Shown: positions 4,112 to 58,039 of the stretch, one piece after another | Layout: every line of letters begins with the position of its first letter | Numbering within the stretch: position 1 is the first letter of the stretch | Source of the DNA: Candidatus Latescibacterota bacterium | GTDB taxonomy: Bacteria; Latescibacterota; UBA2968; GCA-2709665 | Assembly: GCA_965248435.1 (NCBI GenBank) | Contig: OZ252100.1 | Location: forward strand, 1,312,001 to 1,376,000 | DNA length: 64,000 bases | Direction of reading: 5' to 3' | Notes under the pieces: model-generated | Database searches by the model: none | Told to the model about the DNA's origin: nothing | The model's input: the letters and a program-made list of their open reading frames with translations, nothing else | Made by a program: the position numbers and the translations under genes

Positions 4112-5470
4112 TCACGCTTGACCTCCAGTTCCGTCTCCATCGACGGAAGAAACCCCTAGGCTGCGAAAGGTCCCCCGGGCAACCGCGAGTGCACTTTCGC
4201 GGCTATCGATGGTCCCTTCCAGTTGGGCATCTTCCACTGCGGTAAGCGCACGCTTGAACGCAGGTCCTGGAGCATAACCCAGGCGAATCAGATCTTTCCC
4301 TGATATAAGAGGCGCGGGTCGAATGTCCTCAGGTCCGAATTCGTCCACGGCTTCCTTGCAAAATTCATAGTTCTCAAGATTTCCGTGGCAGGCAAGGCAG
4401 TCAACGCGATGCAACTCCAGGTGTTCTTCGAACCGATGGGTCCGGAGAAAGCGCTTCAGTCGGCTCGGCCGCATCCGACGCACGTGCATAAACTGGTGGT
4501 GGTCAGACACAAGGCGCACGATATGCTCGGTCGAGTCCAAGGAGAAATGCAGCCGCTTGCAGATCTCCGCGGCCATCTGCCCGCCAATCCGATCGTGGTT
4601 GTTGAACCGAATCCGATCGCTGACTTCCAGAGTGCGTGGCTTGCCGACATCGTGGAGCAGCACGCCCATCGCAAGCTCCGGTGAGGGGGTCTTGACGATC
4701 CCGAGCATGATCAGCGTGTGCGTTAGAACATCCCCCTCAGGGTGAAAATTTCGGGGTTGCTGCAGGCCTTGCATCCGAACGACTTCGGGCAGGATAGACG
4801 CCATCAACCCTGAATCGATCAGCCACCGGACCCCGAGTGGGGCTCCGCCCTCCGTGAGGACCTTCAAGAGTTCATCGCGGACACGTTCTGCGCTGATCTC
4901 ATCGATCGATCCACTGAACCGGCGGATGGACCTAAACATCTCTGCATCGAGTCTCCAGCCATATCGGCTCCCAAACCGAATGGCCCGAATCATTCTCAAG
5001 CGATCTTCGCGAAAACGCTGCTCGGGGGGTCCGATCGTTCTGACCCGTCCGATGCGCAAGTCCTCCAGTCCACCCACGTAATCGATGATCCGATCTTCGA
5101 TCGGATCCATGAACATTCCATTGACGGTAAAATCACGACGCAGGGCGTCTTCACGCGAATCAGAAAATACAACCTGATCCGGTCGACGGCCGTCGCTGTA
5201 GCCCAGATCCCGACGGAACCGAGCAACCTCGTAATCGTGTCCATCGACTTGGACGATCACCACGCCGAAATGGGCACCCACCTCCCGGGCATTCGGGAAA
5301 ATATTCATCACCGTCCCACAGTCGGCATCGGTTGCAATATCATAATCCTGAGGCAGAATACCCAGGAGGTGGTCTCGGACGCAACCGCCGGCAAACAGCG
5401 CCTGAAATCCACGGTCCTGCAGCGTCCGAACGACCCGGACAGCGCCCTCTCTTAGGGAAAGGCCATCCAT
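4112..5470 (-). CDS. cca: CCA tRNA nucleotidyltransferase (class II, HD domain)
   Basis: GGCVRD...DYDIAT, EDALRRDFT, EDRLRMIRA, HPEGDV..H...LLHDVGK. Confidence 0.9.
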   Translation of the reverse strand: MDGLSLREGAVRVVRTLQDRGFQALFAGGCVRDHLLGILPQDYDIATDADCGTVMNIFPNAREVGAHFGVVIVQVDGHDYEVARFRRDLGYSDGRRPDQVVFSDSREDALRRDFTVNGMFMDPIEDRIIDYVGGLEDLRIGRVRTIGPPEQRFREDRLRMIRAIRFGSRYGWRLDAEMFRSIRRFSGSIDEISAERVRDELLKVLTEGGAPLGVRWLIDSGLMASILPEVVRMQGLQQPRNFHPEGDVLTHTLIMLGIVKTPSPELAMGVLLHDVGKPRTLEVSDRIRFNNHDRIGGQMAAEICKRLHFSLDSTEHIVRLVSDHHQFMHVRRMRPSRLKRFLRTHRFEEHLELHRVDCLACHGNLENYEFCKEAVDEFGPEDIRPAPLISGKDLIRLGYAPGPAFKRALTAVEDAQLEGTIDSRESALAVARGTFRSLGVSSVDGDGTGGQA

Positions 5471-5476
5471 GCTGAC

Positions 5477-6769
5477 TCAAACCACACTCATCTGGACGCG
5501 GCGGATCCTGGCACCCAGCGACCTCAGTCGTTCATCAATCCGTTCGTGCCCGCGATCGATCTGCTCGATATTACCGATCACGCTTTCGCCTTCGGCGCAG
5601 AGACTTGCAATAAGGAGCGCCATGCCGGCGCGGATATCTGGACTCATAAGATGCTCGCCGTAAAGCTTGGACGGCCCGACCACAACGGCCCGATGGGGAT
5701 CACACAGGATGATCTTGGCACCCATCTCGATCAGTCGGTCCACCCAGTACATGCGTGACTCGAACATCTTCTCGAAGAAAAGGATGGTCCCTCTCGCTTG
5801 GGTGGCCACTACGATGGCAATGCTCATCAAATCGGCCGGAAACCCGGGCCACGGATCGTCGTCGATCTTCGGGATGGCGTTGCCAACATCGGGAATAATC
5901 TCCAACTTTTGGTAATCCGGGACGATAATGTCCTCACCATCAATCTGGACCTCGAGCCCCAGACGGCGAAAGACCATCAGGCTCCGACGCATGGCTTCGG
6001 GCGCGGCGTTCGGAATTCGAATTTCTCCATTTGTGACCGCTGCGAGCCCGATGAAACTCCCCACTTCCATGTAGTCGGGGCCGATCGTGTGAACCCCACC
6101 GCCCAATGCGTCCACGCCCTCGATCGTGAGCTCGTTCGTCCCGATCCCTGAAATCCTCGCCCCCAGCACATTGAGTAGATGGCAAAGCTCCTGAACGTGA
6201 GGTTCCGAGGCCGCGTTTCGAATCACGGTCTTGCCCTCCGCGAGTGTGGCGGTCATCACGGTATGTTCCGTCGCCGTCACGCTCCGTTCATCCAGGAAGA
6301 TGTCCGCTCCTTTCAAGCCCCTGGGGGCCTCCATCTCGTAGATGTGATTCGTGGAGATGCGAGCGCCAAGCGCCTCAAGGGCCATGATGTGGGAATCCAC
6401 ACGCCGCCTTCCGATCTTGTCACCACCGGGCCTTGGAACCGTGGCCTGCCCGCAGCGCGCCAGCAGCGGGCCAGAAAACATAAAACCGCCCCTCACCTTC
6501 CGACAAAGATCGGATCTCAGGGCGGTCTTGTTGATGGAACGGGCAGAAACGACCAATTCGTGATGGCCGTGGATCTTGATCTGCACGCCTAAATCCCTCA
6601 GGATCTCCACGATGCAAGCGATGTCACCGATATCCGGGACATTCTTTAGAACAACGTCTTCCCTTGTAAGAAGTGTCGCCGCCAGCACGGCTTGTGCCGC
6701 ATTCTTGTTGCCGGCCGGCGAGATCGTGCCGGAGAGTGGGTACCCCCCTTCAATCACGAACTGTTCCAT
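5477..6769 (-). CDS. murA: UDP-N-acetylglucosamine 1-carboxyvinyltransferase
   Basis: [46 protein letters not shown]. Confidence 0.96.
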
Positions 6770-6828
6770 GGACCTCCTCAGATTTTTCGAGGGGGGGAGG
6801 GTGATATGTCGTTCGTGGTCTAAGTTAA

Positions 6829-6857
6829 ACTATAACAAATCCTTGAGGAAAATTCAA
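6829..6857 (-). promoter_or_regulatory. sigma70-type promoter of murA
   Basis: TTGAAT-17-TATAGT. Confidence 0.55.
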
Positions 6858-7003
6858 GAGGAAAATCCTCACAGCATTTGTGGCGAGAACGGGCGGTTGG
6901 TGCGCGCCGTGCCGATAGCTAAAGGGGTCTGCCAAGAATTGTAAGTTGTGAATTTGGGACCCGATTGTGAACGCCCATTGGGCCTTGCTCTCCGGAAATG
7001 AAG

Positions 7004-7032
7004 TTGACAGCCTTCGCAATTTGATCTATCTT
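7004..7032 (+). promoter_or_regulatory. sigma70-type promoter of the M23 peptidase gene
   Basis: TTGACA-17-TATCTT. Confidence 0.6.
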
Positions 7033-7108
7033 CTTGTCCGTAGTGCCCTTAACACAATGAGTTACGTAATCTCTACCGTATCAAGCCAGTCGATTCGGAG
7101 CCCTCGGG

Positions 7109-8542
7109 ATGCCGATCTATGAGAACCTGATCAGGAGTCGGGCAAGCGCGCGGGTAGGCCGCAAGGGTCTGCGTTCCATCCTCTTCCTCGTTGTTGCGTG
7201 CGTCGCTGCTCTCCTTGCCGGAATGGGCCAAATGACCGGCCTCACGCCCGAAGTAGAGGCCCCGCCCGAGGTGGATCAGACCGAATCAGAAAGCGTAAAC
7301 ACGCTCCTCGTGGAGCCTGAGCCTCAGTTCACCGAAATCTCGGGACAGATCGGACCACGACAGGTCTTTTCAGAGGCCCTGATGGGAAAGGGAATCTCTC
7401 ACGAACAGGTGTTCGATCTCGTCTCCGCGGTCCGGGCCGGCGTGCACCGCCGCGAGTTTAATCCGAATCTTGTGCAGCGGGGAGATCGCTACCGGATAGG
7501 CGTCGACAGCCTTGGCATTATTCAGTCCTTCGAATTTGTCAAGAAGGGGGCAATGGAGACCCGCTTTGTCGCGCTGCGCGAAGACGGGATCCTTCGCGCG
7601 AAAAAGGAACAGGTTCCCCTCGACCGCGAGGTCGTCATCATCTCAGGCGTCATCAAAGACATGCTTTGGAATGCCCTCGCCGCAACAGGAGAGAATCCGG
7701 CCGTGCTCAGTGACAAGATGGTAGACATCTTCGAATATTACATCGATTTCATGGTCGACTGTCGCGCCAACGATCGGTTCGCACTCATCGTGGAGAAACT
7801 CTTCAAAGATGGGCAATTCTTCCGTTATGGGAACATCCTGGCAGCCGAGTATGCCACCGCCAGGAAAAGCTACCAGGCCTTCAGATTCGGCGATGCCCGG
7901 ATGGGATGGCGCTATTACGATTCCGAGGGCAAATCGCTCCAGGGACTCTTCTTGAAGTCCCCTCTGAACTACCGCCGCATCAGCTCCCGCTATAACCCCA
8001 GGCGGTTTCATCCGATCTTGAAGAAAATCATCCCGCATCACGGAATCGACTATGCGGCCGACTACGGGTCCCGCGTTTGGGCAACAGCAGATGGGACCGT
8101 CACCTTCATAGGGCGAAGGGGTGCACTCGGAAAGTACATCGAGATCAGACACAAGAATGGCTACAAAACAGGCTATGGGCATCTGAGTCGGTTCCGGAAA
8201 GGGCTCAAAACGGGCGCCTACGTGAGACAGAAACAGACAATCGGCTACGTGGGTAGCACGGGAAGGGCAACGGGACCCCACGTCCACTACAATTTCCTCG
8301 TCCTGGACAAGAACGGAAAGTACCGACCGCGGAACCCGGCAAAGATCGTCGTCAGCCCAAAACGAAAGTCGGTCCCTCCCTCCCGTCTCTCCGATTTTCT
8401 TCAACTTCGGGAACGATTTCTGGTGCTGCTCGATGGCGTCGCAGGCTCTGTCTTAACGGCCCGCTTGGATGTTGATTCAAAAGCGGGGGTCAACGTGCCC
8501 GATGATGGGAAATCTTTCAGAGAAACGGAAAGGCCTTTTTGA
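7109..8542 (+). CDS. M23 family peptidoglycan DD-endopeptidase (MepM-like)
   Basis: N-terminal TM; RFHPIL...HHGIDY (HxxxD); TGPHVHY (HxH). Confidence 0.92.
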   Translation: MPIYENLIRSRASARVGRKGLRSILFLVVACVAALLAGMGQMTGLTPEVEAPPEVDQTESESVNTLLVEPEPQFTEISGQIGPRQVFSEALMGKGISHEQVFDLVSAVRAGVHRREFNPNLVQRGDRYRIGVDSLGIIQSFEFVKKGAMETRFVALREDGILRAKKEQVPLDREVVIISGVIKDMLWNALAATGENPAVLSDKMVDIFEYYIDFMVDCRANDRFALIVEKLFKDGQFFRYGNILAAEYATARKSYQAFRFGDARMGWRYYDSEGKSLQGLFLKSPLNYRRISSRYNPRRFHPILKKIIPHHGIDYAADYGSRVWATADGTVTFIGRRGALGKYIEIRHKNGYKTGYGHLSRFRKGLKTGAYVRQKQTIGYVGSTGRATGPHVHYNFLVLDKNGKYRPRNPAKIVVSPKRKSVPPSRLSDFLQLRERFLVLLDGVAGSVLTARLDVDSKAGVNVPDDGKSFRETERPF

Positions 8543-10504: not shown

Positions 10505-11839
10505 TCATAGAGTTTTCAGATACTGGTCGATTTCATACCCGGTCACTTGGGCCCGATAGTCGGCCCACTCGATCTTTTTGTTCTCGATAAATTTCTCAAG
10601 AACGTGGTCTCCAAGCGATTTGCGCAGAAGTTCGCTCCCCTGGGCCAGCTCGATCGCGTGCGATAGATCTTGGGGCAGCGTTTCGATTCCTGCCTTCTGC
10701 CGTGCAGAATCGCTCATCTCGGCAACGTTCATTTCTGAAGGCGGAGGCAGTTTGAAGCGCTTTTCGATGCCTTCCAGACCAGCCGCCAACATCACGGAGA
10801 AGGCCAGGTAAGGATTACAAGCTGGATCGGGAGACCTGTATTCCACACGAACGGCGTTTTCCTTGCCGGGTTTATAGGCAGGCACTCGAACCAGATCGGA
10901 CCGATTGATCACGGCCCAGGTTGTGTAGATGGGGGCCTCGTAACCAGGAACGAGCCGCTTGTAGGAATTTACCCACTGGTTCGTCACAAGTGTGATCTCC
11001 CTCGCGTAGCGGAGTAACCCGACGATGTAGTACTTAGCGGCGCGAGACAGATGAAACGGGTCCTTCGGATTGAAGAAGGCGTTGCGTTCCCCCTTGAACA
11101 GGGACATATGCGTGTGCATCCCGTTTCCATTTACGCCGAAGACCGGTTTGGGCATGAACGTGGCCCAGACGCCGTGTTTCAACGCGATCTCCTTGACCAC
11201 CAGACGGTAGGTCATGGCACTGTCGGCCATCGTCAGGGCGTCTGTGTAGAGCAAGTCGATTTCGTGCTGACTGGGAGCCCCTTCGTGATGGCTCGAGGCG
11301 ACCTCAATTCCCATCTGCTGCAAGGCCAGGACAGTCTCGCGTCGGAGGTCGCTGGCGACATCCAGAGGAGTGAGATCGAAGTACCCGCCTTCGTCTAAAC
11401 CCTTCAGCGGTCGTTCTGTGCTCTCGAAGTAGAAATATTCCAGCTCCGGACTGACATAAAATGTGAAGCCCATATCCGAAGCCCGCTTGAGATTTTTCTT
11501 GAGCACCCACCGTGGGTCCCCCTCATAAGGTTTTCCGTTGGGTTCCACGATATCACAGAACATGCGCGCAACCGTACCCTGTTCGCGGGGGCGAAAGGGG
11601 AGCACCTGAAAGGTGCTCGGATCCGGCATGGCGATCATATCGCTTTCATCGATCCGTGCGAAGCCCTCCACGGAGGACCCGTCGAAACCGATTCCCCCAT
11701 CGAGTGCTTCCCCCAGCTGTTCAACCGGAATCGCGACGCTCTTCAGAAACCCGAGGATATCCGTGAACCAAAGGCGGATAAACTTCACGCTATGATCCTT
11801 GGCCGCGCTCAAAACGTAATCTTTGCTTCCGTCGTTCAT
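10505..11839 (-). CDS. glnA: Glutamine synthetase type I (GSI-alpha-like)
   Basis: FIRLWFTDILGFLKS, FDGSSVEGF, PELEYF, HHEGAPSQHE, FMPKP..GVNGNGMH, YKRLVPGYEAP, EYRSPDPACNPY; likely start ATG 11839. Confidence 0.96.
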   Translation of the reverse strand: MNDGSKDYVLSAAKDHSVKFIRLWFTDILGFLKSVAIPVEQLGEALDGGIGFDGSSVEGFARIDESDMIAMPDPSTFQVLPFRPREQGTVARMFCDIVEPNGKPYEGDPRWVLKKNLKRASDMGFTFYVSPELEYFYFESTERPLKGLDEGGYFDLTPLDVASDLRRETVLALQQMGIEVASSHHEGAPSQHEIDLLYTDALTMADSAMTYRLVVKEIALKHGVWATFMPKPVFGVNGNGMHTHMSLFKGERNAFFNPKDPFHLSRAAKYYIVGLLRYAREITLVTNQWVNSYKRLVPGYEAPIYTTWAVINRSDLVRVPAYKPGKENAVRVEYRSPDPACNPYLAFSVMLAAGLEGIEKRFKLPPPSEMNVAEMSDSARQKAGIETLPQDLSHAIELAQGSELLRKSLGDHVLEKFIENKKIEWADYRAQVTGYEIDQYLKTL

Positions 11840-11912
11840 GATTTGGCTCGGTTCGCTGCTTTGTGACGGTGATGGACCGAATAAGAACGGATACAAAAAG
11901 TACTGCCGGCAT

Positions 11913-11950
11913 GTTACGCGCATGTTTCTGGAAGATTAAATGGAGGTTAA
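11913..11950 (-). promoter_or_regulatory. 11-bp-period operator resembling an OmpR-type GlnR box
   Basis: Minus strand reads TTAAC-n6-TTAAT-n6-GAAAC-n6-GTAAC, about 75-110 nt upstream of glnA. Confidence 0.5.
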
Positions 11951-12587: not shown

Positions 12588-13085
12588 ATGACCCGTAGCC
12601 TGACCCTGAATGCGATGCTCACTGCCTTAACGGCGGTTGCGACGCTTGTTTTACGTATTCCAACACCTGCAACACAGGGATACGTGAACCTCGGTGACAG
12701 CGTAATCATCAGTGCCGCACTTCTCTTTGGGTCCAGAACCGGGGCCTTGTCTGGAGGAATCGGCTCCGCGTTAGCGGATATCCTGGGCGGCTATGCACAC
12801 TGGGCTCCCTTTACGCTCGTCATCAAGGGCGCGGAGGGAGCCTTGGTTGGGAGCTTTTCACGCAAATCGCTGCTTTCGAGGATGGGCGTTCTGATTGGTG
12901 GACTCAGGGCATTTGTCGGCACCTTATGGATGGTTTTGGGATACTTCCTCACCGAAACGTTCCTTTACGGATGGCAACCTGCCCTCGCCGGACTCCTGGG
13001 GAACGGGATACAAGGTTTGGCAAGTCTGATCCTGGCGATTCCTGCTGCCATACTCCTTGAACGAGCCGGATTTCGCCGTGAATGA
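12588..13085 (+). CDS. ECF transporter substrate-binding S component
   Basis: AMLTAL..V.T..RIP.P.T.GYVNLGD, GGIGSALAD..GGY..WAPFTLVIKG; about 5-6 TM helices. Confidence 0.88.
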   Translation: MTRSLTLNAMLTALTAVATLVLRIPTPATQGYVNLGDSVIISAALLFGSRTGALSGGIGSALADILGGYAHWAPFTLVIKGAEGALVGSFSRKSLLSRMGVLIGGLRAFVGTLWMVLGYFLTETFLYGWQPALAGLLGNGIQGLASLILAIPAAILLERAGFRRE

Positions 13086-13095
13086 TCGTCTTAAC

Positions 13096-13129
13096 AAAAA
13101 AAAGGGGGCGGCGGAAGCCGTCCCCCTTC
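13096..13129. terminator. Intrinsic terminator between convergent ECF-S and PTS EIIA genes
   Basis: A8-GGGGGCGGC-ggaa-GCCGTCCCCC hairpin; U-tail strongest on minus strand. Confidence 0.65.
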
Positions 13130-13148
13130 TCTCAAGGTCGTCTTCGGA

Positions 13149-13622
13149 TCAGCAGGAAACGCTTTCCGGCTTCACGAGCGCCCCTTTCAAAATCTCTAAA
13201 ACTTCAATCTCCGAGTCCGCGTTCAACAGGGCTTGCCGAACTGGCGCTTCGTGTAACAGGCGAGCAATCTCGGCCACCGTCTTCAAGTAGGCTTGGTCGT
13301 GTTTGTTGGGCCAGCCGATCAGTACCACGATGGACACCCTTTCACCCTCTCCCCATTCGATCCCGTTTCTCGAAACACCCAGTCCGATGACCGGTTCCTC
13401 GATCGTCTCGTCCCGGTAGTGAGGAATCGCAACGCCATCTCCGACACCACTCCCGAAGCGCAGTTCCTTTTGTACCATTACCGATAGAAACTGGCGAAAT
13501 GCGGAAATCTCTGGCCCGTCCTCCAGTAGGCCCGCCAACTCGCGGATCGCCTCCACCTTATTCCGTGCGTCCATGCGCACAAGAATTCTGTCCTGCTTGA
13601 GGTATCGGAGAAGATTAGCCAC
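13149..13622 (-). CDS. Stand-alone PTS EIIA domain protein (fructose/mannitol/Ntr type)
   Basis: K.EAIREL, GSGVGDGVAIPH (phospho-His), GVSRNGIEW. Confidence 0.88.
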   Translation of the reverse strand: MANLLRYLKQDRILVRMDARNKVEAIRELAGLLEDGPEISAFRQFLSVMVQKELRFGSGVGDGVAIPHYRDETIEEPVIGLGVSRNGIEWGEGERVSIVVLIGWPNKHDQAYLKTVAEIARLLHEAPVRQALLNADSEIEVLEILKGALVKPESVSC

Positions 13623-13679
13623 GATTGAACGATTGCCTCGCGATGTAGCAACGCCTCAGTAGAGTTGAAAGCACAGCGT

Positions 13680-14555
13680 CTAGGCCCATTCCATAAGCGG
13701 TTCCAACTGCATTCGGCGCTGAGGGTGTCGCAGCCTGTGCAGCGCCCTCTCTTTGATCTGCCTCACTCGCTCCCGGGTCAGTTGGAATCTTACTCCGATT
13801 TCCTCGAGTGTCATCGGTTCTTCGTCTCCGAGCCCAAAATAGAGTCGGAGTATTTTCGCCTCGCGATCCTCAAGAGAGTCCAGCACCATCTCCACCTGCT
13901 CCTGTACTGACCGCTCCACAACCCCGCTGTCGGGTGTCGCCTGAGACTCATCCGCCAACACGTTCAGCAGACTGTGATCGTCCTCTTCTTTGAATGTCGC
14001 GTCGAGAGACCAGACATCCCGACCTCGCATCATCGTGTCGCGCACCATTTCTACAGAAACACCCAGCTCATCCGCGACTGCCTCAGGCTCGGGCTCGTAC
14101 CCATTAGACTGAAACAGCTCGCGCGAGACCTTTGAAATGTTATGTAAGAGATCGATCCGATTGACCGGCAATCGAACAACCCGCGTGTCCTGCGCCAGGC
14201 TCTGATGGATGGATTGCCGGATCCACCAGACCGCGTAGGAGATGAACTTGAATCCGCGCCGACCGTCAAAACGCTCAGCGGCGGTCATCAGACCAAAGTT
14301 GCCCGCGCTGATCAAGTCTGAAAGCGGAACGCCGTAGTTCTGGTATTCACGCGCGATACTCACGACAAAACGCAGGTTGGCGCCGACCAGTGTATCCCGT
14401 GCCTTCTGGTCTCCTTTTCGGATCCGCTCCGCCAACCCGATCTCCTCTTTACCGGACAGAGGTGTCGAAGAGGCGATATCTCTCAAATACAGATTCAGTG
14501 TTTCGCTGTCTTGCACAGAAATCCCAGCCACGTTCACGATCTCCTCTCCTGCCAA
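13680..14555 (-). CDS. RNA polymerase sigma70-family factor (RpoD/RpoS-like, no region 1.1)
   Basis: LNLYLRDI, ANLRFVVSIA, DLISAGN.GL, KFISYAVWWIRQ, TLEEIG..F.LTRERVRQI. Confidence 0.93.
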   Translation of the reverse strand: MAGEEIVNVAGISVQDSETLNLYLRDIASSTPLSGKEEIGLAERIRKGDQKARDTLVGANLRFVVSIAREYQNYGVPLSDLISAGNFGLMTAAERFDGRRGFKFISYAVWWIRQSIHQSLAQDTRVVRLPVNRIDLLHNISKVSRELFQSNGYEPEPEAVADELGVSVEMVRDTMMRGRDVWSLDATFKEEDDHSLLNVLADESQATPDSGVVERSVQEQVEMVLDSLEDREAKILRLYFGLGDEEPMTLEEIGVRFQLTRERVRQIKERALHRLRHPQRRMQLEPLMEWA

Positions 14556-14587
14556 TCACCCGACCTGCGGCGACAACCGTCTCGTGC

Positions 14588-14602
14588 GTGCAGGTTTTGC
14601 AC
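14588..14602. promoter_or_regulatory. Palindrome GTGCA-N5-TGCAC in the sigma-factor leader
   Basis: gtgcaggttttgcac; same motif as the upstream palindromes. Confidence 0.5.
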
Positions 14603-14714
14603 CCTTCACGTCCGACCCACACAGGTTTGAAATCTACAACACGTTGTTAATAAATAACCTGTAAGGACGTTCCCGCAGCGACCGATACGGCCCCTAGATG
14701 CTGGTTGATAAATT

Positions 14715-14730
14715 AGCAACTTTAATGCCA
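14715..14730 (-). promoter_or_regulatory. sigma54 (-24/-12) promoter facing the sigma70-family gene
   Basis: Minus strand TGGCATTAAAGTTGCT = T-GG-N10-GC-T, matching the TGGCA...TTGCW consensus. Confidence 0.8.
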
Positions 14731-14820
14731 TGTTGCGGGTAGAGAAAGGACAACTGCTTGTTTCGAAATGAATTGGGTGACAAGCCGACAGCGGGGATAT
14801 CTGCAACTCGGGGGACATAC

Positions 14821-14866
14821 ACGCAAAATTTGCATTCCAATCGGATCTAAAGTGCAAATTCTGCAC
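14821..14866. promoter_or_regulatory. Tandem enhancer-like palindromes (putative bEBP upstream activating sequences)
   Basis: acgcaaaatttgcat (14821-14835) and gtgcaaattctgcac (14852-14866); centres 31 bp apart, about 125 and 155 bp upstream of the predicted TSS. Confidence 0.65.
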
Positions 14867-14876
14867 ATGTAGGTGT

Positions 14877-16244
14877 TCACTGAGGGGGCCGGACCTGATA
14901 CCTCTTGAGCTTATACTGGAGGGCCCGAACGCTGATTCCGAGGATGGCCGCAGCCTCTTTCCGGTTTGACGTCACCTGCGTTAGAGTATGCTCGATCAGC
15001 GCCCGCTCCACGTCCTGGATCGATTTACCGATTTCCATCTCAAACCGCTCTGGCCGGGTGCCCGATTCTCGAACTCGGACCGGAAGCCGTTTCACGCCAA
15101 CCTCTTGATCCTCGCAGGTTACCACGATCTGTTCGATCACATTCTTCAGTTCCCGAACGTTTCCCGGCCAGTCGTAGTTTAAAATGGACTGCATCGCACC
15201 AGCGGTAAACCGCTTTCGCGGCTTTCCGTGAAGTGAGCAGAGCTGGGCCAGGAAGGTATCGACAATCAACGGGATATCCTCTTTCCGGTCCTTTAGCAGG
15301 GGCAGCTGGATGGGCACGACATTGATCCTATAATACAAATCCTCTCGAAATCCCCCCTGCCTCATGAGGGTGTCCAGGTCCCGATTCGTGGCAAAAATCG
15401 TCCTCACATTGGCCTTGTGTGGCTTCATCCCGCCGACTGGGGTGTAGACTTTCTCCTCCAGAACGCGGAGTAAATCCACCTGATTCTGGATCGGGATCTC
15501 GCTCACCTCGTCAAAAAACAGCGTGCCCCCCTCCGCGGCAGCGAATCGCCCAGGCTTGTCTGCGTGCGCGCCGGTGAATGCCCCCCGGACATGGCCGAAA
15601 AGCTCGCTCTCAAACAGGGATTCAGGAATCGCACCGCAGTTGACCGGCACCATCGGATCATCTGCGCGGCTGCTCGTTTGCCAGATTGCCCTTGCGACCA
15701 GCTCCTTTCCCGTTCCCGTTTCGCCCGTGATCAACACAGGGACGTCTGTCATTGCCGCCTGTCTGATCGTGTCGCATACACTCCTCATCACTTCGCTTCG
15801 ATGGACGATCTCTTCAAAAGACGTCGCTGAATCCAGACGCGCACGAAGCTCTTTGTTCTCAACGACAAGCGCCTGGTGTTCCAGAAGGCGCTCCAAAGAG
15901 AGTCTGATGCGCTTGAAGTCTGTCGGCTTGGGTAGAAAATCATAAGCACCCAGACGCATCGCCTCGACGGCGGTCGCGACCTCGCCCTGTGCAGTGATCA
16001 CAATCACCCCCGTGTCGGGGCTCCTCGCCTTGACCTCTTTGAGCAGAGACATCGCCGCTTTCCCTGGCACCTTGAGGTCCAGAATGGCTGCGTGGTAATG
16101 CCCACGTTCCAGGCGTTTACCTATCTCGCGCAGGCCGTGGACGGCATCCACAATATAGCCGGCCTCGGAAAGAAAGTCGATCAAGCCTTCGGAGACATCT
16201 TTCTCATCATCGATGACAAGGATACGGTTCTCGTTCGAGTGCAT
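14877..16244 (-). CDS. sigma54-dependent response regulator (REC-AAA+-Fis HTH; NtrC/AtoC/ZraR family)
   Basis: VIDDE, ILDLK, GETGTGKE, ESELFGH..GAFTGA, FFDEV, FREDLYYRI, WPGNVREL, C-terminal HTH. Confidence 0.95.
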   Translation of the reverse strand: MHSNENRILVIDDEKDVSEGLIDFLSEAGYIVDAVHGLREIGKRLERGHYHAAILDLKVPGKAAMSLLKEVKARSPDTGVIVITAQGEVATAVEAMRLGAYDFLPKPTDFKRIRLSLERLLEHQALVVENKELRARLDSATSFEEIVHRSEVMRSVCDTIRQAAMTDVPVLITGETGTGKELVARAIWQTSSRADDPMVPVNCGAIPESLFESELFGHVRGAFTGAHADKPGRFAAAEGGTLFFDEVSEIPIQNQVDLLRVLEEKVYTPVGGMKPHKANVRTIFATNRDLDTLMRQGGFREDLYYRINVVPIQLPLLKDRKEDIPLIVDTFLAQLCSLHGKPRKRFTAGAMQSILNYDWPGNVRELKNVIEQIVVTCEDQEVGVKRLPVRVRESGTRPERFEMEIGKSIQDVERALIEHTLTQVTSNRKEAAAILGISVRALQYKLKRYQVRPPQ

Positions 16245-16347
16245 CTAATTTTCCTGTTCAGTTCGTTTTCTTTCAACGCCAAAGGCTCTTTCAAAAGCTA
16301 TCGAAGCGCTTCCGGATTCGCAAGCGCAACTTCCTTTTCCAAAGACC

Positions 16348-16377
16348 TTGACACATCCCCCGCCGTGGCGCTATTAT
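16348..16377 (+). promoter_or_regulatory. sigma70-type promoter of glnD
   Basis: TTGACA-18-TATTAT. Confidence 0.55.
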
Positions 16378-16478
16378 CAAATTTGGCTTTTCGTGCATTA
16401 AGGTCGTATCAAATAGAAGGATAACGAACGTCTACACCAGACTTCGGGCATCGCGCCCAGGAAGGGGTGAATTCATAG

Positions 16479-19148
16479 TTGGACAGTGACCTCCGAAAGC
16501 GACTCAAGGACCTCAGGGCGAAAAGCGGCCCAAAAGAACTGCCCAAAAAGAGGATCGAGCTGCTCAGGCGCTATCTAGAGCGAGCCTGGGACGAGGTCCT
16601 CTCCCGACATCGGTCCCAGGCATCCGGACAAGAGGTGGTCGAAGCCCTTACAGAACGCGTCGACACGCTTATTTCATTGCTTCATAGAGAAGCGGTCCTG
16701 GACACCGGAGGAGATCCACCTAGGGGATATGTCGTCTTAGCGCTGGGAGGCTACGGAAGAGCAGCCCTTAATCCAAAGTCTGACGTTGACCTCTTGTTTC
16801 TATCGCAAAAAGTGGAAAAAGCGCACCCTGTTACTCGGACCATACTCCACGCACTTTGGGACCTACGATTCGAGATCGGATACAGCACTCGTACAATCCC
16901 TGATTGTCTTTCCGCAGCGAAGGAGGACCCGGACTCTCTCACGTCCTTGTATGAGGCCCGCTATCTTGTCGGAGACCGCAAACTGGCCAAAAAACTGGAG
17001 GACGCCCTGACAGGGCAATTTTTCGGCCGGAGGGCTCGTACTTTTGTTGCCCAAAAGGTCGAGGAGCGTCGGCAGAGACACGTCAGAGCAGGTCTCTCCG
17101 TTCAACTCCTGGAACCGGACGTAAAGGAGAGTACCGGCGGACTCAGGGAGACGCACGCCGTCGGGTGGCTGCTCAAAGTGCGGGGGGTCGTCACACCCGA
17201 CGGGCTACTGAAAGAACATCTGCTTGACCGAAGAAATTTTCGCCTCTACACCGAAGGTCTCGATTTTCTGCTGCGGACTAGAAACGAGCTTCACTTCCTT
17301 ACGGGGAAACGCCAGGACGTGCTCGAACACGAGCTCCAACCGACGGTCGCTCTCGGTCTCGGATACGAAGACCAGAATGGAGAGTTGGGCGTTGAGCGAT
17401 TCATGCGAGATTACTACCTGCACGCCAGAAACATAAAACATCTTTCCGACTTCATATGTGAGCGGCTGGACGGCCAACCGTCTGTGGCACGCCGTGTCGT
17501 AGGTTTGATCGTAAGGCGAACCCTGGATGATGGGGCCGTCCTCACGCATTCTCACATCGGACTACCTAGAGAAAGGAAGTCCTTCTTTGAAAGCAATCCG
17601 CGTCGGCTCCTGAGCCTCTTTTTGGACAGCCAACGATTCGGGGTTCCAATCAACGAAGCAACTCGCCGAAGCATCCAGGATAGCACCCAGCTTATTGATG
17701 CCGACTTCCGAAGTTCCAAGGAAGCTGCCCACATATTTCTGGAAATCCTGCGTGCCCCTGGAGGGGTAGCTGTAACGCTGCGTACGATGCACGAACTCGG
17801 CATACTGGGCGCCTACATTCCCGAGTTCGATAGCCTGACGTGCCTGGTGCAGTATAATCGTTACCATATCTACACGGCCGATGAACATACGCTGGTGGCA
17901 ATCGAGAATCTAGAGCGTCTTCTCACCGATTCGTCGGACGGAGGAGCCCTTTCTCATCTCAAACGTGTATTCAAAGAAATCCCGAGAAAGGAGACGCTCT
18001 ATTTGGCCGTACTGTTGCACGACGTGGGGAAGTCGGTCCGTGGCTCGGAACACAGCGCCGAAGGTGCGGCCATGGCTCGGGACTTCCTGGTCAGGCTGGG
18101 GCTCCCATCTGAGCAGACAAAGGCCATCATTCTTTTGATTAAGAATCACCTTCAGATGTCACACATCTCGCAGCGCCGGGACTTGTCCGACGAGCGCATG
18201 TTGAAGGAGTTTTCTCGCTCGGTCAAGCATCCAAACCTGCTGCGCATGCTCTATGTGCTCACTTACGCCGATCTTTCTGCCGTGACCCGAACGGCCTGGA
18301 CGGCGTGGAAGGCGCATCTCCTTCGCGAACTTTACGCCAAGACCCTAAACATCTTGACATCGGGGTCGCCATCTGCCGAGGAGGAGCGCAGGCGGCAAGC
18401 CGCCAGCCGGGATCTTGTTGGAGCGCTCAGCGACCGTTTCGGACGGGGCCTGGTGAAGAAGCATGTCGATCGTCTTCCACCACACTATGCTGAACTGAAC
18501 GGTAGCGAAAGCGTAGGGAGACATCTCGATCTGATTCAGAAGCTCGAGAACTCGCCCGTTACGGTCGGGTTTGCACCGAGTCGTTTCTTCTCTGAAGTGA
18601 CCGTCTGCACCCAGGACAAACCTTACAGGCTTTCTGAAATCTGCGGCGTGCTTTCCAGCAACGACATCAATATCTTCAGTGCGCAGGCCTACACGCGTTC
18701 CGACGGGATCGTGATGGATACCTTTCAAGTCACGACCTTGGACGAAACCAGCCATCCCATACACCAGAAGCAGGTGCAAAAACAACTTGCGGAGGTCTTT
18801 CAGGAAAAGGTCAGCCTGGAAGACCTTTTCGTCAGGCATCAGCGGCGGTGGGCCAGGCGAAGGAAACCAGCGGCTCGGATTCCGACCGAGATCCATTTCG
18901 AAAACGACATCTCGGACAGATACACCATCATAGACATCTTTGCACAAGATGCAGTCGGACTTCTCTACAAAATTACGAGCACCCTTTCCGATCTTGGTCT
19001 GGATATCTACACCGCCCGCATCAGTACTCAGGCAGACAGGGCGGTGGACTCCTTCTATGCGATCCGAGACGGCAAAAAGATCGAATCTCAGGAAGAGCAG
19101 GACCGCACAAGAAAGGAGCTTATCGCCCGAATCGAGAGGCCAGATTAG
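16479..19148 (+). CDS. glnD: [Protein-PII] uridylyltransferase / uridylyl-removing enzyme
   Basis: ALGGYGR..L.PKSDVDLL, EPDVKESTGGLR, YHIYTADEH, LLHDVGK, two C-terminal ACT domains. Confidence 0.95.
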   Translation: MDSDLRKRLKDLRAKSGPKELPKKRIELLRRYLERAWDEVLSRHRSQASGQEVVEALTERVDTLISLLHREAVLDTGGDPPRGYVVLALGGYGRAALNPKSDVDLLFLSQKVEKAHPVTRTILHALWDLRFEIGYSTRTIPDCLSAAKEDPDSLTSLYEARYLVGDRKLAKKLEDALTGQFFGRRARTFVAQKVEERRQRHVRAGLSVQLLEPDVKESTGGLRETHAVGWLLKVRGVVTPDGLLKEHLLDRRNFRLYTEGLDFLLRTRNELHFLTGKRQDVLEHELQPTVALGLGYEDQNGELGVERFMRDYYLHARNIKHLSDFICERLDGQPSVARRVVGLIVRRTLDDGAVLTHSHIGLPRERKSFFESNPRRLLSLFLDSQRFGVPINEATRRSIQDSTQLIDADFRSSKEAAHIFLEILRAPGGVAVTLRTMHELGILGAYIPEFDSLTCLVQYNRYHIYTADEHTLVAIENLERLLTDSSDGGALSHLKRVFKEIPRKETLYLAVLLHDVGKSVRGSEHSAEGAAMARDFLVRLGLPSEQTKAIILLIKNHLQMSHISQRRDLSDERMLKEFSRSVKHPNLLRMLYVLTYADLSAVTRTAWTAWKAHLLRELYAKTLNILTSGSPSAEEERRRQAASRDLVGALSDRFGRGLVKKHVDRLPPHYAELNGSESVGRHLDLIQKLENSPVTVGFAPSRFFSEVTVCTQDKPYRLSEICGVLSSNDINIFSAQAYTRSDGIVMDTFQVTTLDETSHPIHQKQVQKQLAEVFQEKVSLEDLFVRHQRRWARRRKPAARIPTEIHFENDISDRYTIIDIFAQDAVGLLYKITSTLSDLGLDIYTARISTQADRAVDSFYAIRDGKKIESQEEQDRTRKELIARIERPD

Positions 19149-19366: not shown

Positions 19367-20680
19367 ATGACGGTTACGACGACCAAAGAAACTGAAAAGA
19401 CGGAAAAGACCGAAAAGATGGAAAAGATGGACATGATCGATCTTCAGAGGATGACGATCGCTGAACTCGGCAAACTCGCCCGGGAACTCAACATACAGGG
19501 ATACAGCAGCCAGAGAAAACAGGAGTTGATTTTTTCGATCCTCCAGGCCCAGACCGAAAAGAGCGGTCTCATCTTCGCGCAAGGTGTCCTGGAGATCCTC
19601 GAGGATGGGTTCGGATTCCTTCGCTCACCGACCTACAACTACCTGCCCGGGCCCGATGACATCTATGTCTCGCACTCCCAGATCAAGCGCTTCAACCTTC
19701 GAACCGGAGACACCATTTCAGGGCAAATTCGGCCCCCGAAGGGTGACGAAAAATATTTCGCCCTGATCCGGGTGGAGGCCGTCAACTTTGAAGACCCAGA
19801 CCAAGCCAAGCATAAGATCCTCTTCGACAATCTCACTCCGCTTTATCCTCGCGAACGGATCGGCCTGGAATATGACAGTAAGGAACTTTCTACGCGGATT
19901 ATGAACCTCCTCACGCCTATAGGCAAGGGACAACGGGGAATGATCGTGGCGCCTCCGTTTACAGGCAAGACCATGCTCCTCCAAAAAATCGCAAATGCCA
20001 TCACGCATAGCCATCCCGAGATCGCGCTTATCGTCCTGCTCATAGACGAGCGCCCGGAAGAAGTCACAGACATGCTTCGGTCAGTAAATGGCGAGGTCAT
20101 CAGTTCGACATTCGATGAACCTGCAACGCGACACGTCCAAGTCGCGGACATGGTCATTGAAAAAGCCAAGCGTCTCGTCGAGCACCAGCAGGATGTCGTC
20201 ATCCTCCTGGATAGCATCACTCGTCTTGCGAGGGCGTATAACACGGTTGTTCCTCACAGCGGACGTATCCTGACCGGAGGCCTTGACTCGAGCGCCATGC
20301 AGTGGCCGAAGCGATTCTTCGGGGCAGCTCGAAACATCGAAGAGGGAGGGAGCCTTACGATCATCGCGACGGCCCTCGTCGAAACCGGAAGCAGGATGGA
20401 CGACGTCATATTCGAAGAGTTCAAGGGTACTGGCAACATGGAGCTCAAACTGGATCGGCGCTTGAGCAATCGCAGGATCTTTCCTGCCATCGATGTAACG
20501 CAGTCCAGCACACGAAAGGAAGAGCTCCTTCTTGAAGAAAAAGAACTGAATCGTGTATGGATCCTCAGGAAGCTCCTCAATCAGACACCGGCACAGGAGG
20601 CGATGGAATTCCTTATCGAACGAGTGTCCGGAACCAAGGGGAATGATGACTTTTTGAACTCCATGAACGCCCCGGTTTAG
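19367..20680 (+). CDS. rho: Transcription termination factor Rho
   Basis: [59 protein letters not shown]. Confidence 0.98.
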
Positions 20681-52793: not shown

Positions 52794-52800
52794 CAATAAT

Positions 52801-52916
52801 CCCGGCGGCGACCTACTCTCCCACAAGGTCTCCCAAGCAGTACCATCGGCGCAGGAGGGCTTAACTGCTCTGTTCGGAATGGGAAGAGGTGTTTCCCCTC
52901 CGCTATAGCTACCGGA
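52801..52916 (-). rRNA. rrf: 5S ribosomal RNA
   Basis: Reverse complement contains CCCATTCCGAACAG, GCCGATGGTACTG and GGGAGAGTAGGTCG; ends approximate. Confidence 0.95.
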
Positions 52917-52982
52917 AAATTAGGTTGAATATCGGATGTCTATTGCAAAGCACGTTAGCGATCTGCTGAAAAACTGAGAAAA

Positions 52983-56013
<3,031 letters not shown>

Positions 56014-56103
56014 AAAATCAGTCTTCCAGCAGATCACTGACGTGCTCTGCTAAAAGTACTGTCGCGAGTTCGGCGTTACAACAGATACCCGACTTCCAAT
56101 ATT

Positions 56104-56119
56104 CAATTGTCAAAGAACA
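56104..56119 (-). promoter_or_regulatory. Spacer boxA antitermination element
   Basis: TGTTCTTTGACAATTG on minus strand. Confidence 0.7.
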
Positions 56120-56188
56120 ATTGGGGCGGAACGCCGCCCCGAAATATTACTTATAAATTATGCTGAGTTTTGATCGAAATAGCAAAAC

Positions 56189-56264
56189 TGGTGGAGATAA
56201 CCGGACTCGAACCGGTGACCTCGGCCTTGCAAGGGCCGCGCTCTCCCAGCTGAGCTATATCCCC
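56189..56264 (-). tRNA. tRNA-Ala(UGC)
   Basis: GGGGATATAGCTCAG...CTTGCAA...GGTTCGAGTCC...TCTCCACCA. Confidence 0.97.
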
Positions 56265-56303
56265 AGCGGCAATTCCAGTAAGGATTTACCAAGGTCAGTT
56301 TCT

Positions 56304-56380
<77 letters not shown>

Positions 56381-56471
56381 GAGAATCCTAAACAATCGAA
56401 TAGCGCGCACGAGCATGACTGGCAATTGACCTGGAGTAGGCCCGGGCGTCCGAAGACCCCAAGCCATGTCT

Positions 56472-58039
<1,568 letters not shown>

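Follow-up and report, generated by a model that had tools for sequence, protein, structure and literature searches.

The closest described counterparts of the locus reported here are systems in which sigma-54 drives the gene of a second sigma factor. In Borrelia burgdorferi, as set out in the relevant sections of three papers, a response-regulator enhancer-binding protein activates the sigma-54 promoter of the gene for an alternative sigma factor of the sigma-70 family (PMC2940757, PMC3037356, PMC11109971), and the cited part of a further paper describes sigma-54 driving fliA (sigma-28) in Geobacter and names Vibrio and Campylobacter as similar (PMC2725144). Cascades of this kind are known from few systems, namely Borrelia RpoS and flagellar sigma-28. 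A second line of comparison is the nitrogen-related phosphotransferase system (PTS-Ntr), which is described as purely regulatory in a section of one paper (PMC4635465). In this study, we analyzed a 64,000-nucleotide stretch of contig OZ252100.1 (referred to as the window) from a Candidatus Latescibacterota bacterium, in which a bacterial enhancer-binding protein (bEBP) of the response-regulator type, a sigma-70-family factor and an enzyme IIA (EIIA) of the phosphotransferase system (PTS) are encoded side by side. Quite probably, judging from the sequence, the last two genes form a sigma-54-dependent operon that makes an alternative sigma-70-type factor together with a regulatory EIIA and is switched on by the activator encoded immediately upstream.

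Three parts of a cascade of the Borrelia Hk2/Rrp2-RpoN-RpoS design are present in the window: a response-regulator bEBP gene, a sigma-54-type promoter and a sigma-70-family gene as its predicted target. The likeness is one of how the system would work and not of orthology. With 269 bits to TIGR02394, where the cut-off is 378.7, the window sigma factor does not qualify as an RpoS equivalog; moreover, a conserved three-site predicted enhancer is found here, one or two EIIA genes belong to the operon, and the host phylum is a different, uncultured one. Rrp2, for its part, is not known to use a defined enhancer, and it depends on BosR. The fliA systems share the sigma-54-driven gene of the sigma-70 family, but there the product is a flagellar group 3 sigma encoded in flagellar operons, whereas the window sigma is a full-length, group-2-like protein that includes region 1.2, and the neighbouring genes looked at included none of flagellar type. 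With PTS-Ntr (EI-Ntr, NPr and EIIA-Ntr/PtsN, with ptsN in the rpoN operon of Proteobacteria) the locus has in common a stand-alone EIIA of the fructose/mannitol/Ntr family, a phospho-histidine and linkage to a sigma gene. It differs in that the window EIIA scores 39.3 bits to the PtsN model (TIGR01419; cut-off 138.7), in that Enzyme I here lacks a GAF domain, and in that the EIIA gene is linked not to rpoN but to a sigma-70-family gene read by sigma-54; the EIIA_2 matches in the genome all lie away from rpoN, and none of the four ORFs (open reading frames) scanned beside rpoN gave one. Within the literature covered, which excluded subscription journals, we found no description of a circuit like this from Latescibacterota, nor of any sigma-54-driven operon that combines an EIIA gene with the gene of a sigma-70-family factor. 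The description of this cascade as undescribed, made in an earlier note on this DNA, is thus upheld in the sense that no paper describing it was found, and the circuit is best seen as a variant of the known sigma-54-to-sigma-70-family cascade.

The three genes proposed in the earlier note are present as ORFs on the minus strand (Table 1). The activator carries Response_reg, Sigma54_activat, AAA_lid_14 and HTH_8 domains (Pfam), and an alignment (A1) places GAFTGA at residues 221-226 and shows the receiver residues D12, D13, D56 and K106, as well as GAFTGA, to be conserved. It scores 401.5 bits to AtoC (NF008469; cut-off 714) and 382.8 bits to NtrC (TIGR01818; cut-off 558.6), reaching neither cut-off. 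The sigma protein has sigma-70 regions 1.2, 2, 3 and 4 (Pfam) and stays under the cut-off of every RpoD model as well. Its start is more likely the GTG at 14537 (285 aa) than the TTG at 14555, because a GGAGAGGAG box lies 5 nt upstream of the GTG and because orthologues were read as 283 aa in 29/29 loci, a reading for which the start codon nearest the position of the window's GTG was chosen at each locus. The gap between the activator and sigma genes, given before as 320 bp, measures 321 nt to the TTG and 339 nt to the GTG, and the 57 nt between the sigma and EIIA genes were confirmed. The terminator claimed after the EIIA gene was found too, as a hairpin that spans about 13097-13133, precedes a run of eight U and has a folding energy of -26.6 kcal/mol (z = -4.41); none of 200 shuffles folded equally well. 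A simple consensus scan for sigma-70 promoters and terminators did not list this hairpin and gave nothing useful for this lineage.

The -24/-12 element that had been noted facing the sigma gene, TGGCATTAAAGTTGCT, is the sole match to TGGCAY-N5-TTGCW in the window. Shuffles of the window had a mean of 0.05 matches (5 of 100 shuffles with a match), and 34 matches on both strands were found genome-wide where about 10 would be expected by arithmetic from base composition. TGGCATTAAAGTTGCT has the GG and GC dinucleotides at the spacing of a -24/-12 promoter (pattern TGGCAC-N5-TTGCW), and counting the C of GC as -12 the transcription start is predicted at 14704 on the minus strand. The two palindromes reported earlier lie, as stated there, 31 bp apart, with centres 124 and 155 bp upstream of that predicted start. 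Taken singly, YGCA-N5-TGCR sites whose centre is A/T-rich show no enrichment in the genome (24 found against 49.5 expected from composition), but these two are the only pair 25-40 bp apart in all 5.67 Mb, which points to a regulator dedicated to this promoter. A third palindrome, GTGCAGGTTTTGCAC, overlooked in the earlier note, lies 50 nt before the GTG start in the predicted leader. Between enhancer and promoter, the A-rich box AAACAAGCAGTTG may serve as a bend site; we call it IHF-like on the basis of what we take to be the IHF consensus. An RNA element in the leader is not supported, since Rfam gave no match in 12900-16500 at E values up to 1 and the leader RNA folds no better than shuffled sequences (z = -0.39).

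Table 1. Coordinates of the block, its predicted control elements and the flanking genes in the window
Feature	Position	Strand	Remark
Activator gene, NtrC/AtoC-type enhancer-binding response regulator	14877-16244	-	455 aa; Pfam
Distal predicted enhancer site GTGCA-N5-TGCAC	14852-14866	.	centre about -155
Proximal predicted enhancer site ACGCA-N5-TGCAT	14821-14835	.	centre about -124
IHF-like box AAACAAGCAGTTG	14751-14763	-	centre about -53, between enhancer and promoter; partly conserved in the 13-locus alignment
Predicted sigma-54 promoter TGGCATTAAAGTTGCT (TGGCAT-TAAAG-TTGCT, -24/-12)	14715-14730	-	consensus match and conservation
Third palindrome GTGCA-N5-TGCAC GTGCAGGTTTTGCAC	14588-14602	.	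predicted leader, about +103 to +117; fully conserved in the 13-locus alignment
Sigma-70-family gene, alternative, group-2-like	13680-14555	-	291 aa from TTG at 14555; Pfam
EIIA gene, PtsN-like stand-alone PTS_EIIA_2	13149-13622	-	157 aa; Pfam
Intrinsic terminator, G+C-rich hairpin and eight U	13092-13133	-	fold energy
ECF-transporter S-component gene	12588-13085		glnA-side flank
glnA	10505-11923	-	one flank of the block
glnD	16479-19148		opposite flank from glnA
rho	19367-20680		glnD-side flank

Orthologues of the sigma factor, 73-86% identical, were found in 41/41 genomes of the order searched, covering two families and nine genera. We read 30 loci, the window's own and those of 29 relatives; one of them (L007) starts at the sigma gene and has no upstream DNA, leaving 29 for upstream features. 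In all 29, the promoter, the two upstream palindromes and the gene order are kept, which bears out the check that the earlier note had proposed. TGGCA-N6-TTGC occurs in 29/29, and the window's exact 16-mer in 17 of the 19 loci of its own family. Every one of the 29 has two TGCA-N5-TGCA sites, 31-33 bp apart and starting about 100-166 bp upstream of the -24 TGG, and a single such site 116-166 bp downstream of it. The activator gene lies upstream in 28/29. As the genomes are kin and the counts therefore not independent, the real evidence lies in the conserved blocks set against scrambled flanks: in an alignment of 13 loci, only the three palindromes, the promoter and the A-rich AAACAA-N4-TTR box align, and the remaining intergenic DNA is unalignable.

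Two of these loci carry peculiarities of their own. At L025 (genome G026), which is the exception for the activator gene, a repeat-bearing insertion fills the fetched flank, within which the gene was not found. Read in the direction of the sigma gene, the first 650 nt of this locus contain four or more copies of a unit of about 30 nt (…gttgcc[gc]catcaccc[ag]tagggacagg…), about 60-75 nt apart, between the enhancer and the activator side. At L008 (G008), tandem -24/-12 elements 20 bp apart, TGGCATTATAGTTGCC and TGGCATTATAGTTGCT, are present at oriented positions 646 and 666.

The presence of rpoN, which a cascade of this kind presupposes, was confirmed at G000:C1:264316-265731 in the window's genome (448.9 bits against a cut-off of 277.35), and 50 of the 53 genomes in the order have rpoN; the three without a match are draft assemblies of 82-92% completeness. 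The gene lies about 1 Mb from the block, however, and the cognate kinase is absent from the genome. The interpretation of the earlier note, an enhancer protein acting through sigma-54 on a sigma-70-family gene, therefore stands as far as the cascade goes, although the term "self-contained" has to be dropped and the EIIA holds only in part as its output, as discussed below.

The genome encodes 13 full-length sigma-70 factors with region 3, of about 268-331 aa. One of these paralogues, s4400984 (285 aa), has a median identity of 68% to 80 reference sigma loci, with a best match of 92%, whereas the window sigma has a median of 51% to the same loci and is 52% identical to s4400984. The reference loci come mostly from named records of the FCB group and were taken as the main sigmas of those genomes. 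Because of its median and best identities to these presumed main sigmas, s4400984 is taken as the housekeeping candidate, and by the same comparison the window sigma is an alternative paralogue and not the housekeeping factor. At only 285 aa, the candidate resembles the short primary sigmas of the FCB group. The helix of region 4.2 (TRERVRQIKE) is identical in the two proteins, and region 2.4 differs at one position, H in the window sigma and L in s4400984, if regions 2.4 and 4.2 map onto E. coli residue numbers as we assume. As the helix is shared and region 2.4 differs, the window sigma likely has an overlapping but shifted promoter preference, much like group 2 sigmas.

A sigma-54-type promoter occurs within 900 nt upstream of only 2 of the 13 sigma genes. 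The second sigma-54-to-sigma unit of the genome (L162, G000:C1:4455000-4467000) consists, all on the minus strand, of a PspF-like activator with AAA+ and HTH_8 domains but no receiver (329 aa), TGGCACACTGTTTGCT and a 293-aa sigma-70 paralogue, with coordinates 6488-7477, 6163-6178 and 5200-6081, respectively, within that locus. In view of this second unit, sigma-54 may head a whole network of sigma factors in this phylum, made up of 13 sigma-70 paralogues.

In most relatives the block is fuller than in the window. An additional gene, which we call EIIA', lies between promoter and sigma gene in 27 of the 29 loci, the two exceptions being G000 and G001, both genomes of the window's genus. Its product is a PTS_EIIA_2 protein that is 23-30% identical to the window EIIA and shows 43-58% identity when the two families are compared. 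Immediately before the activator gene, G002, G004, G007, G027 and G098 encode a soluble kinase of about 357 aa with HisKA and HATPase domains, in two of which a PAS domain was detected, and a tblastn match of 55% identity marks the same gene in G038. Beside the small kinase, on the other strand, a second and divergent one is encoded that combines GAF, HisKA and HATPase domains; it exceeds 1000 aa and has PAS domains in G002, G004 and G038, and it is 555 aa long in G027. In the window's genome, no orthologue of the small kinase was found by tblastn (best matches 30-37% identical and beside other activators, against 48-64% for true orthologues), there is none of EIIA' (best match 31% identical), no remnant of EIIA' was found in the window's leader, and the large PAS/GAF kinase was also lost in this genus. 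As read from these comparisons, the window is a reduced form of the block, with an orphan activator, the promoter, the sigma gene and a second EIIA gene left after loss of kinase and EIIA' in the genus. The downstream EIIA is itself restricted: orthologues of the window type (56-75% identity) were found only in genera g1, g2, g4 and g5, with a 49% copy in g9. In all five aligned orthologues its final residue is a cysteine (…VSC or …VAC; last codons at 13149-13154), which is absent in the paralogues.

The earlier note had presented the window EIIA as the PTS output of the cascade. An EIIA is indeed part of the putative operon, but the partner that is widespread in the phylum is the upstream EIIA', lost in this genus. 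Across 168 genomes of the phylum, a search with an EIIA' profile gave a bimodal result, and at the orthologue threshold of E <= 1e-41 EIIA' is present in 90 of them: in 19/22 genomes of the window's own family (f1, own genome included), 30/31 of f2, 39/76 of f4 and 2/2 of f9, and in none of the other families of the phylum at that threshold. Twenty of these places were fetched, 18 from f4 and two from f9. In f4, a second family of the same class, activator, EIIA' and sigma are present in 18/18 sampled loci, with a sigma 55-61% identical to that of the window; the kinase is present in 17/18, the remaining locus ending at a contig edge, and the -24/-12 element was found in 16/18 with the pattern used first, while the two remaining loci matched a less strict pattern. 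The layout of the palindromes differs, with one upstream and two downstream of the promoter in most f4 loci and two upstream and one downstream in the window's order. A separate sample of five f4 genomes had the block in three, one of them (G104) without the sigma gene. Taken together, EIIA' adjoins sigma in 49 of 50 loci examined.

Searches with the sigma factor gave less direct results. True f4 counterparts are 54-61% identical to the window sigma; the best sigma matches in f3 and f4 (58-64%) and a 63% second copy in G004 were rejected as a different paralogue, since 20/20 of their loci lack the block. Among the 80 reference sigma loci introduced above, which came from a wider genome collection (47-62% identity) and were taken as mostly housekeeping sigmas of FCB-group phyla with close kin seemingly left out of the collection, none had an EIIA match or a strict promoter directly upstream, and 8/80 had an NtrC-like gene of 32-43% identity upstream of sigma.

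Here, then, the sigma-54-to-sigma design appears as a core circuit that much of an uncultured phylum has conserved, with a three-site predicted enhancer and one or two PtsN-like EIIA genes always in the operon. What the window adds is the conserved site in the leader, the form lacking kinase and EIIA', the second EIIA, the glnA/glnD flanking and the second sigma-54-to-sigma unit.

We propose that: dimers of the activator bind the two TGCA-N5-TGCA sites, three helical turns apart and about 124 and 155 bp upstream of the start, and probably also the third site, about 110 bp downstream of it; the DNA would bend at the A-rich, IHF-like box, so that the AAA+ ring could contact the sigma-54 holoenzyme at TGGCAT-N5-TTGCT through GAFTGA and open the promoter; and the transcript, starting near 14704 with about 165 nt of leader, would run through the sigma and EIIA genes to the terminator hairpin. 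The sigma factor made would then redirect core polymerase to the shifted promoter set. Ancestrally, the block would have comprised kinase, activator, promoter, EIIA', sigma and EIIA. As the kinase has been lost in this genus, the orphan activator would have to be fed by another kinase, a small phosphodonor or some other route. Borrelia offers a parallel for such a kinase-less form, as the cognate kinase HK2 is, according to the relevant section of one report, not needed for activation in vitro (PMC7649798). Given the small size of its parts, the circuit could be reconstructed in E. coli, so that the claim is testable although the organism is uncultured.

Several observations weigh against this proposal. 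The proteins of the block stay below the curated cut-offs for NtrC, AtoC, RpoS, RpoD and PtsN alike. The cognate kinase is missing in the window's genome, and the receiver domain of the activator is 57.5% identical to that of a same-family orthologue, compared with 67.3% between two orthologues of different families; the AAA+ domain has no such drop (71.8% within the family, 69.4% between families). The Pfam receiver score is likewise 75 and 71 bits in this genus and 98-104 bits in relatives. Given the receiver drift and the kinase loss, the input of the activator may be altered or weakened in this genus. Outside the order, the two loci of f9, a more distant family, have EIIA' and sigma but neither an activator gene within 3.5 kb nor a clear -24/-12 element, so the EIIA'-sigma pair is not always under activator and sigma-54 control, and G104 (L160/L137) keeps kinase, activator, promoter and EIIA' with no sigma gene downstream of EIIA'. 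Two other genomes of the genus of G104 do have the sigma gene; the downstream frame in G104, with a PGGYGT motif, is presumably LOG-like. A sigma-70-type promoter in the leader may also exist.

Traces of expression come from four RNA-library runs of four studies, whose contigs match the stretch, the sigma gene included. Three contig pieces are identical to the sigma gene where they match it (14427-14575, 14302-14556 and 14271-14421); a relative's contig with 10 differences spans 14399-14683, which takes in part of the gene, the third palindrome and some of the leader beyond it, and a relative's contig spans the sigma-EIIA junction (13517-13771). Such contigs show neither start nor strand and may stem from DNA carry-over, which counts against leaning on them, and they are a weak hint that the sigma gene is expressed. 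No contig of X17-X20 lies over 14715-15680; this uncovered part carries no weight and was not used for the start site.

Which signal the block serves is a separate question. It had been suggested that the position between glnA and glnD hints at nitrogen or starvation control, and a fuller version of this idea, compatible with the mechanism proposed above, would make the block the nitrogen (Ntr) output of the lineage, with kinase and activator as counterparts of NtrB and NtrC and the sigma-EIIA operon induced on nitrogen limitation via GlnD and PII. Both glnA and glnD flank the block in the window, G001, G004 and G038, and glnD alone is near it in G002 and G027, so that one or both of glnA and glnD flank the block in five of the six loci that were examined in the order and that come from five other genera. 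The kinase of the relatives, a soluble PAS-HisKA-HATPase protein of about 357 aa, resembles NtrB in what we take to be the typical size and layout of that protein. However, this kinase scores 283-286 bits to AtoS and 113-130 bits to NtrB (cut-off 240), and the activator too scores higher to AtoC than to NtrC, all of its scores being below cut-off. In the other family, 3/3 loci are without glnA or glnD within 16 kb, and in G007 the block is accompanied by rho and not by glnD. The genome has no second enhancer pair, at glnA for example, and TGCA-N5-TGCA differs in spacing from what we take to be the enteric NtrC site. Neighbourhood alone being weak evidence, the nitrogen hint is modestly strengthened by the gln genes within the order and weakened by the other family and the AtoS/AtoC-leaning scores, and we regard nitrogen control as possible but doubtful.

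About equally tentative is the idea that the third palindrome is an operator, at which activator bound to the leader would block elongation or repress a second promoter, giving negative autoregulation comparable to the repression of glnAp1 by NtrC. The position of the site inside the transcribed leader in 29/29 loci, and the layout in the other family, where two of the three sites follow the promoter and one precedes it, fit this idea, although the leader RNA itself has no significant fold.

The role of the EIIA proteins can be approached from the PTS of the genome as a whole. The histidine of the G-[VI]-A-x-P-H motif is kept in both EIIA groups in an alignment (GVAIPH in the window EIIA), and the genome encodes an Enzyme I of 617 aa and one HPr as a donor chain. 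PTS_EIIC (PF02378), the one EIIC family searched for, gave no match in this 97.5% complete genome. The EIIA_2 set of the genome comprises three stand-alone genes and one domain fused to a permease; in the latter case EIIA_2, an amino-acid permease and TrkA_C are joined in one 701-aa protein (L161:2605-4710, plus strand; G000:C1:2705604-2707709). The PtsN model matches another gene in this genome at 93.5 bits. The PTS of this organism is most likely regulatory only, and because the histidine is kept, Enzyme I and HPr are present and PF02378 is without a match, the window EIIA is most likely a PtsN-like signalling protein that would couple the switch to the metabolic state. E. coli PtsN acts on KdpD and PhoR.

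A stronger version of this proposal, a PTS-gated sigma factor, would make the EIIA proteins dedicated, phosphorylation-dependent partners of the switch, whose phospho-state, set by Enzyme I and HPr, controls either the sigma factor, in the manner of an anti-sigma factor or a helper, or the kinase. The adjacency of EIIA' and sigma, the spread of EIIA' through the phylum and the activator sites on both sides of the promoter are compatible with such gating, as is, weakly since it is a single event, the joint loss of kinase and EIIA' in the window's genus, but we consider it rather unlikely. Be this as it may, the block provides a compact system from nature in which the coupling between a regulatory PTS and sigma switching can be studied, with a kinase-less variant included for comparison.

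That the cascade is decaying in this genus, with an activator that is never on, a sigma gene silent or read from a sigma-70-type promoter and a sigma-54 element that is a relic, would fit the loss of small kinase, adjoining large PAS/GAF kinase and EIIA' and the faster divergence of the receiver domain, but is very improbable, as G000 and G001 keep the three palindromes and an identical 16-nt promoter while the DNA between them has diverged, the phospho-acceptor residues D12, D13, D56 and K106 and GAFTGA are intact, all three genes are open with a sigma 86% identical between the two genomes, and, a weaker point, RNA-library contigs match the sigma gene exactly.

Elsewhere in the window, a complete rRNA operon (5S, 23S, two tRNAs and 16S) is present at 52800-58039 on the minus strand.

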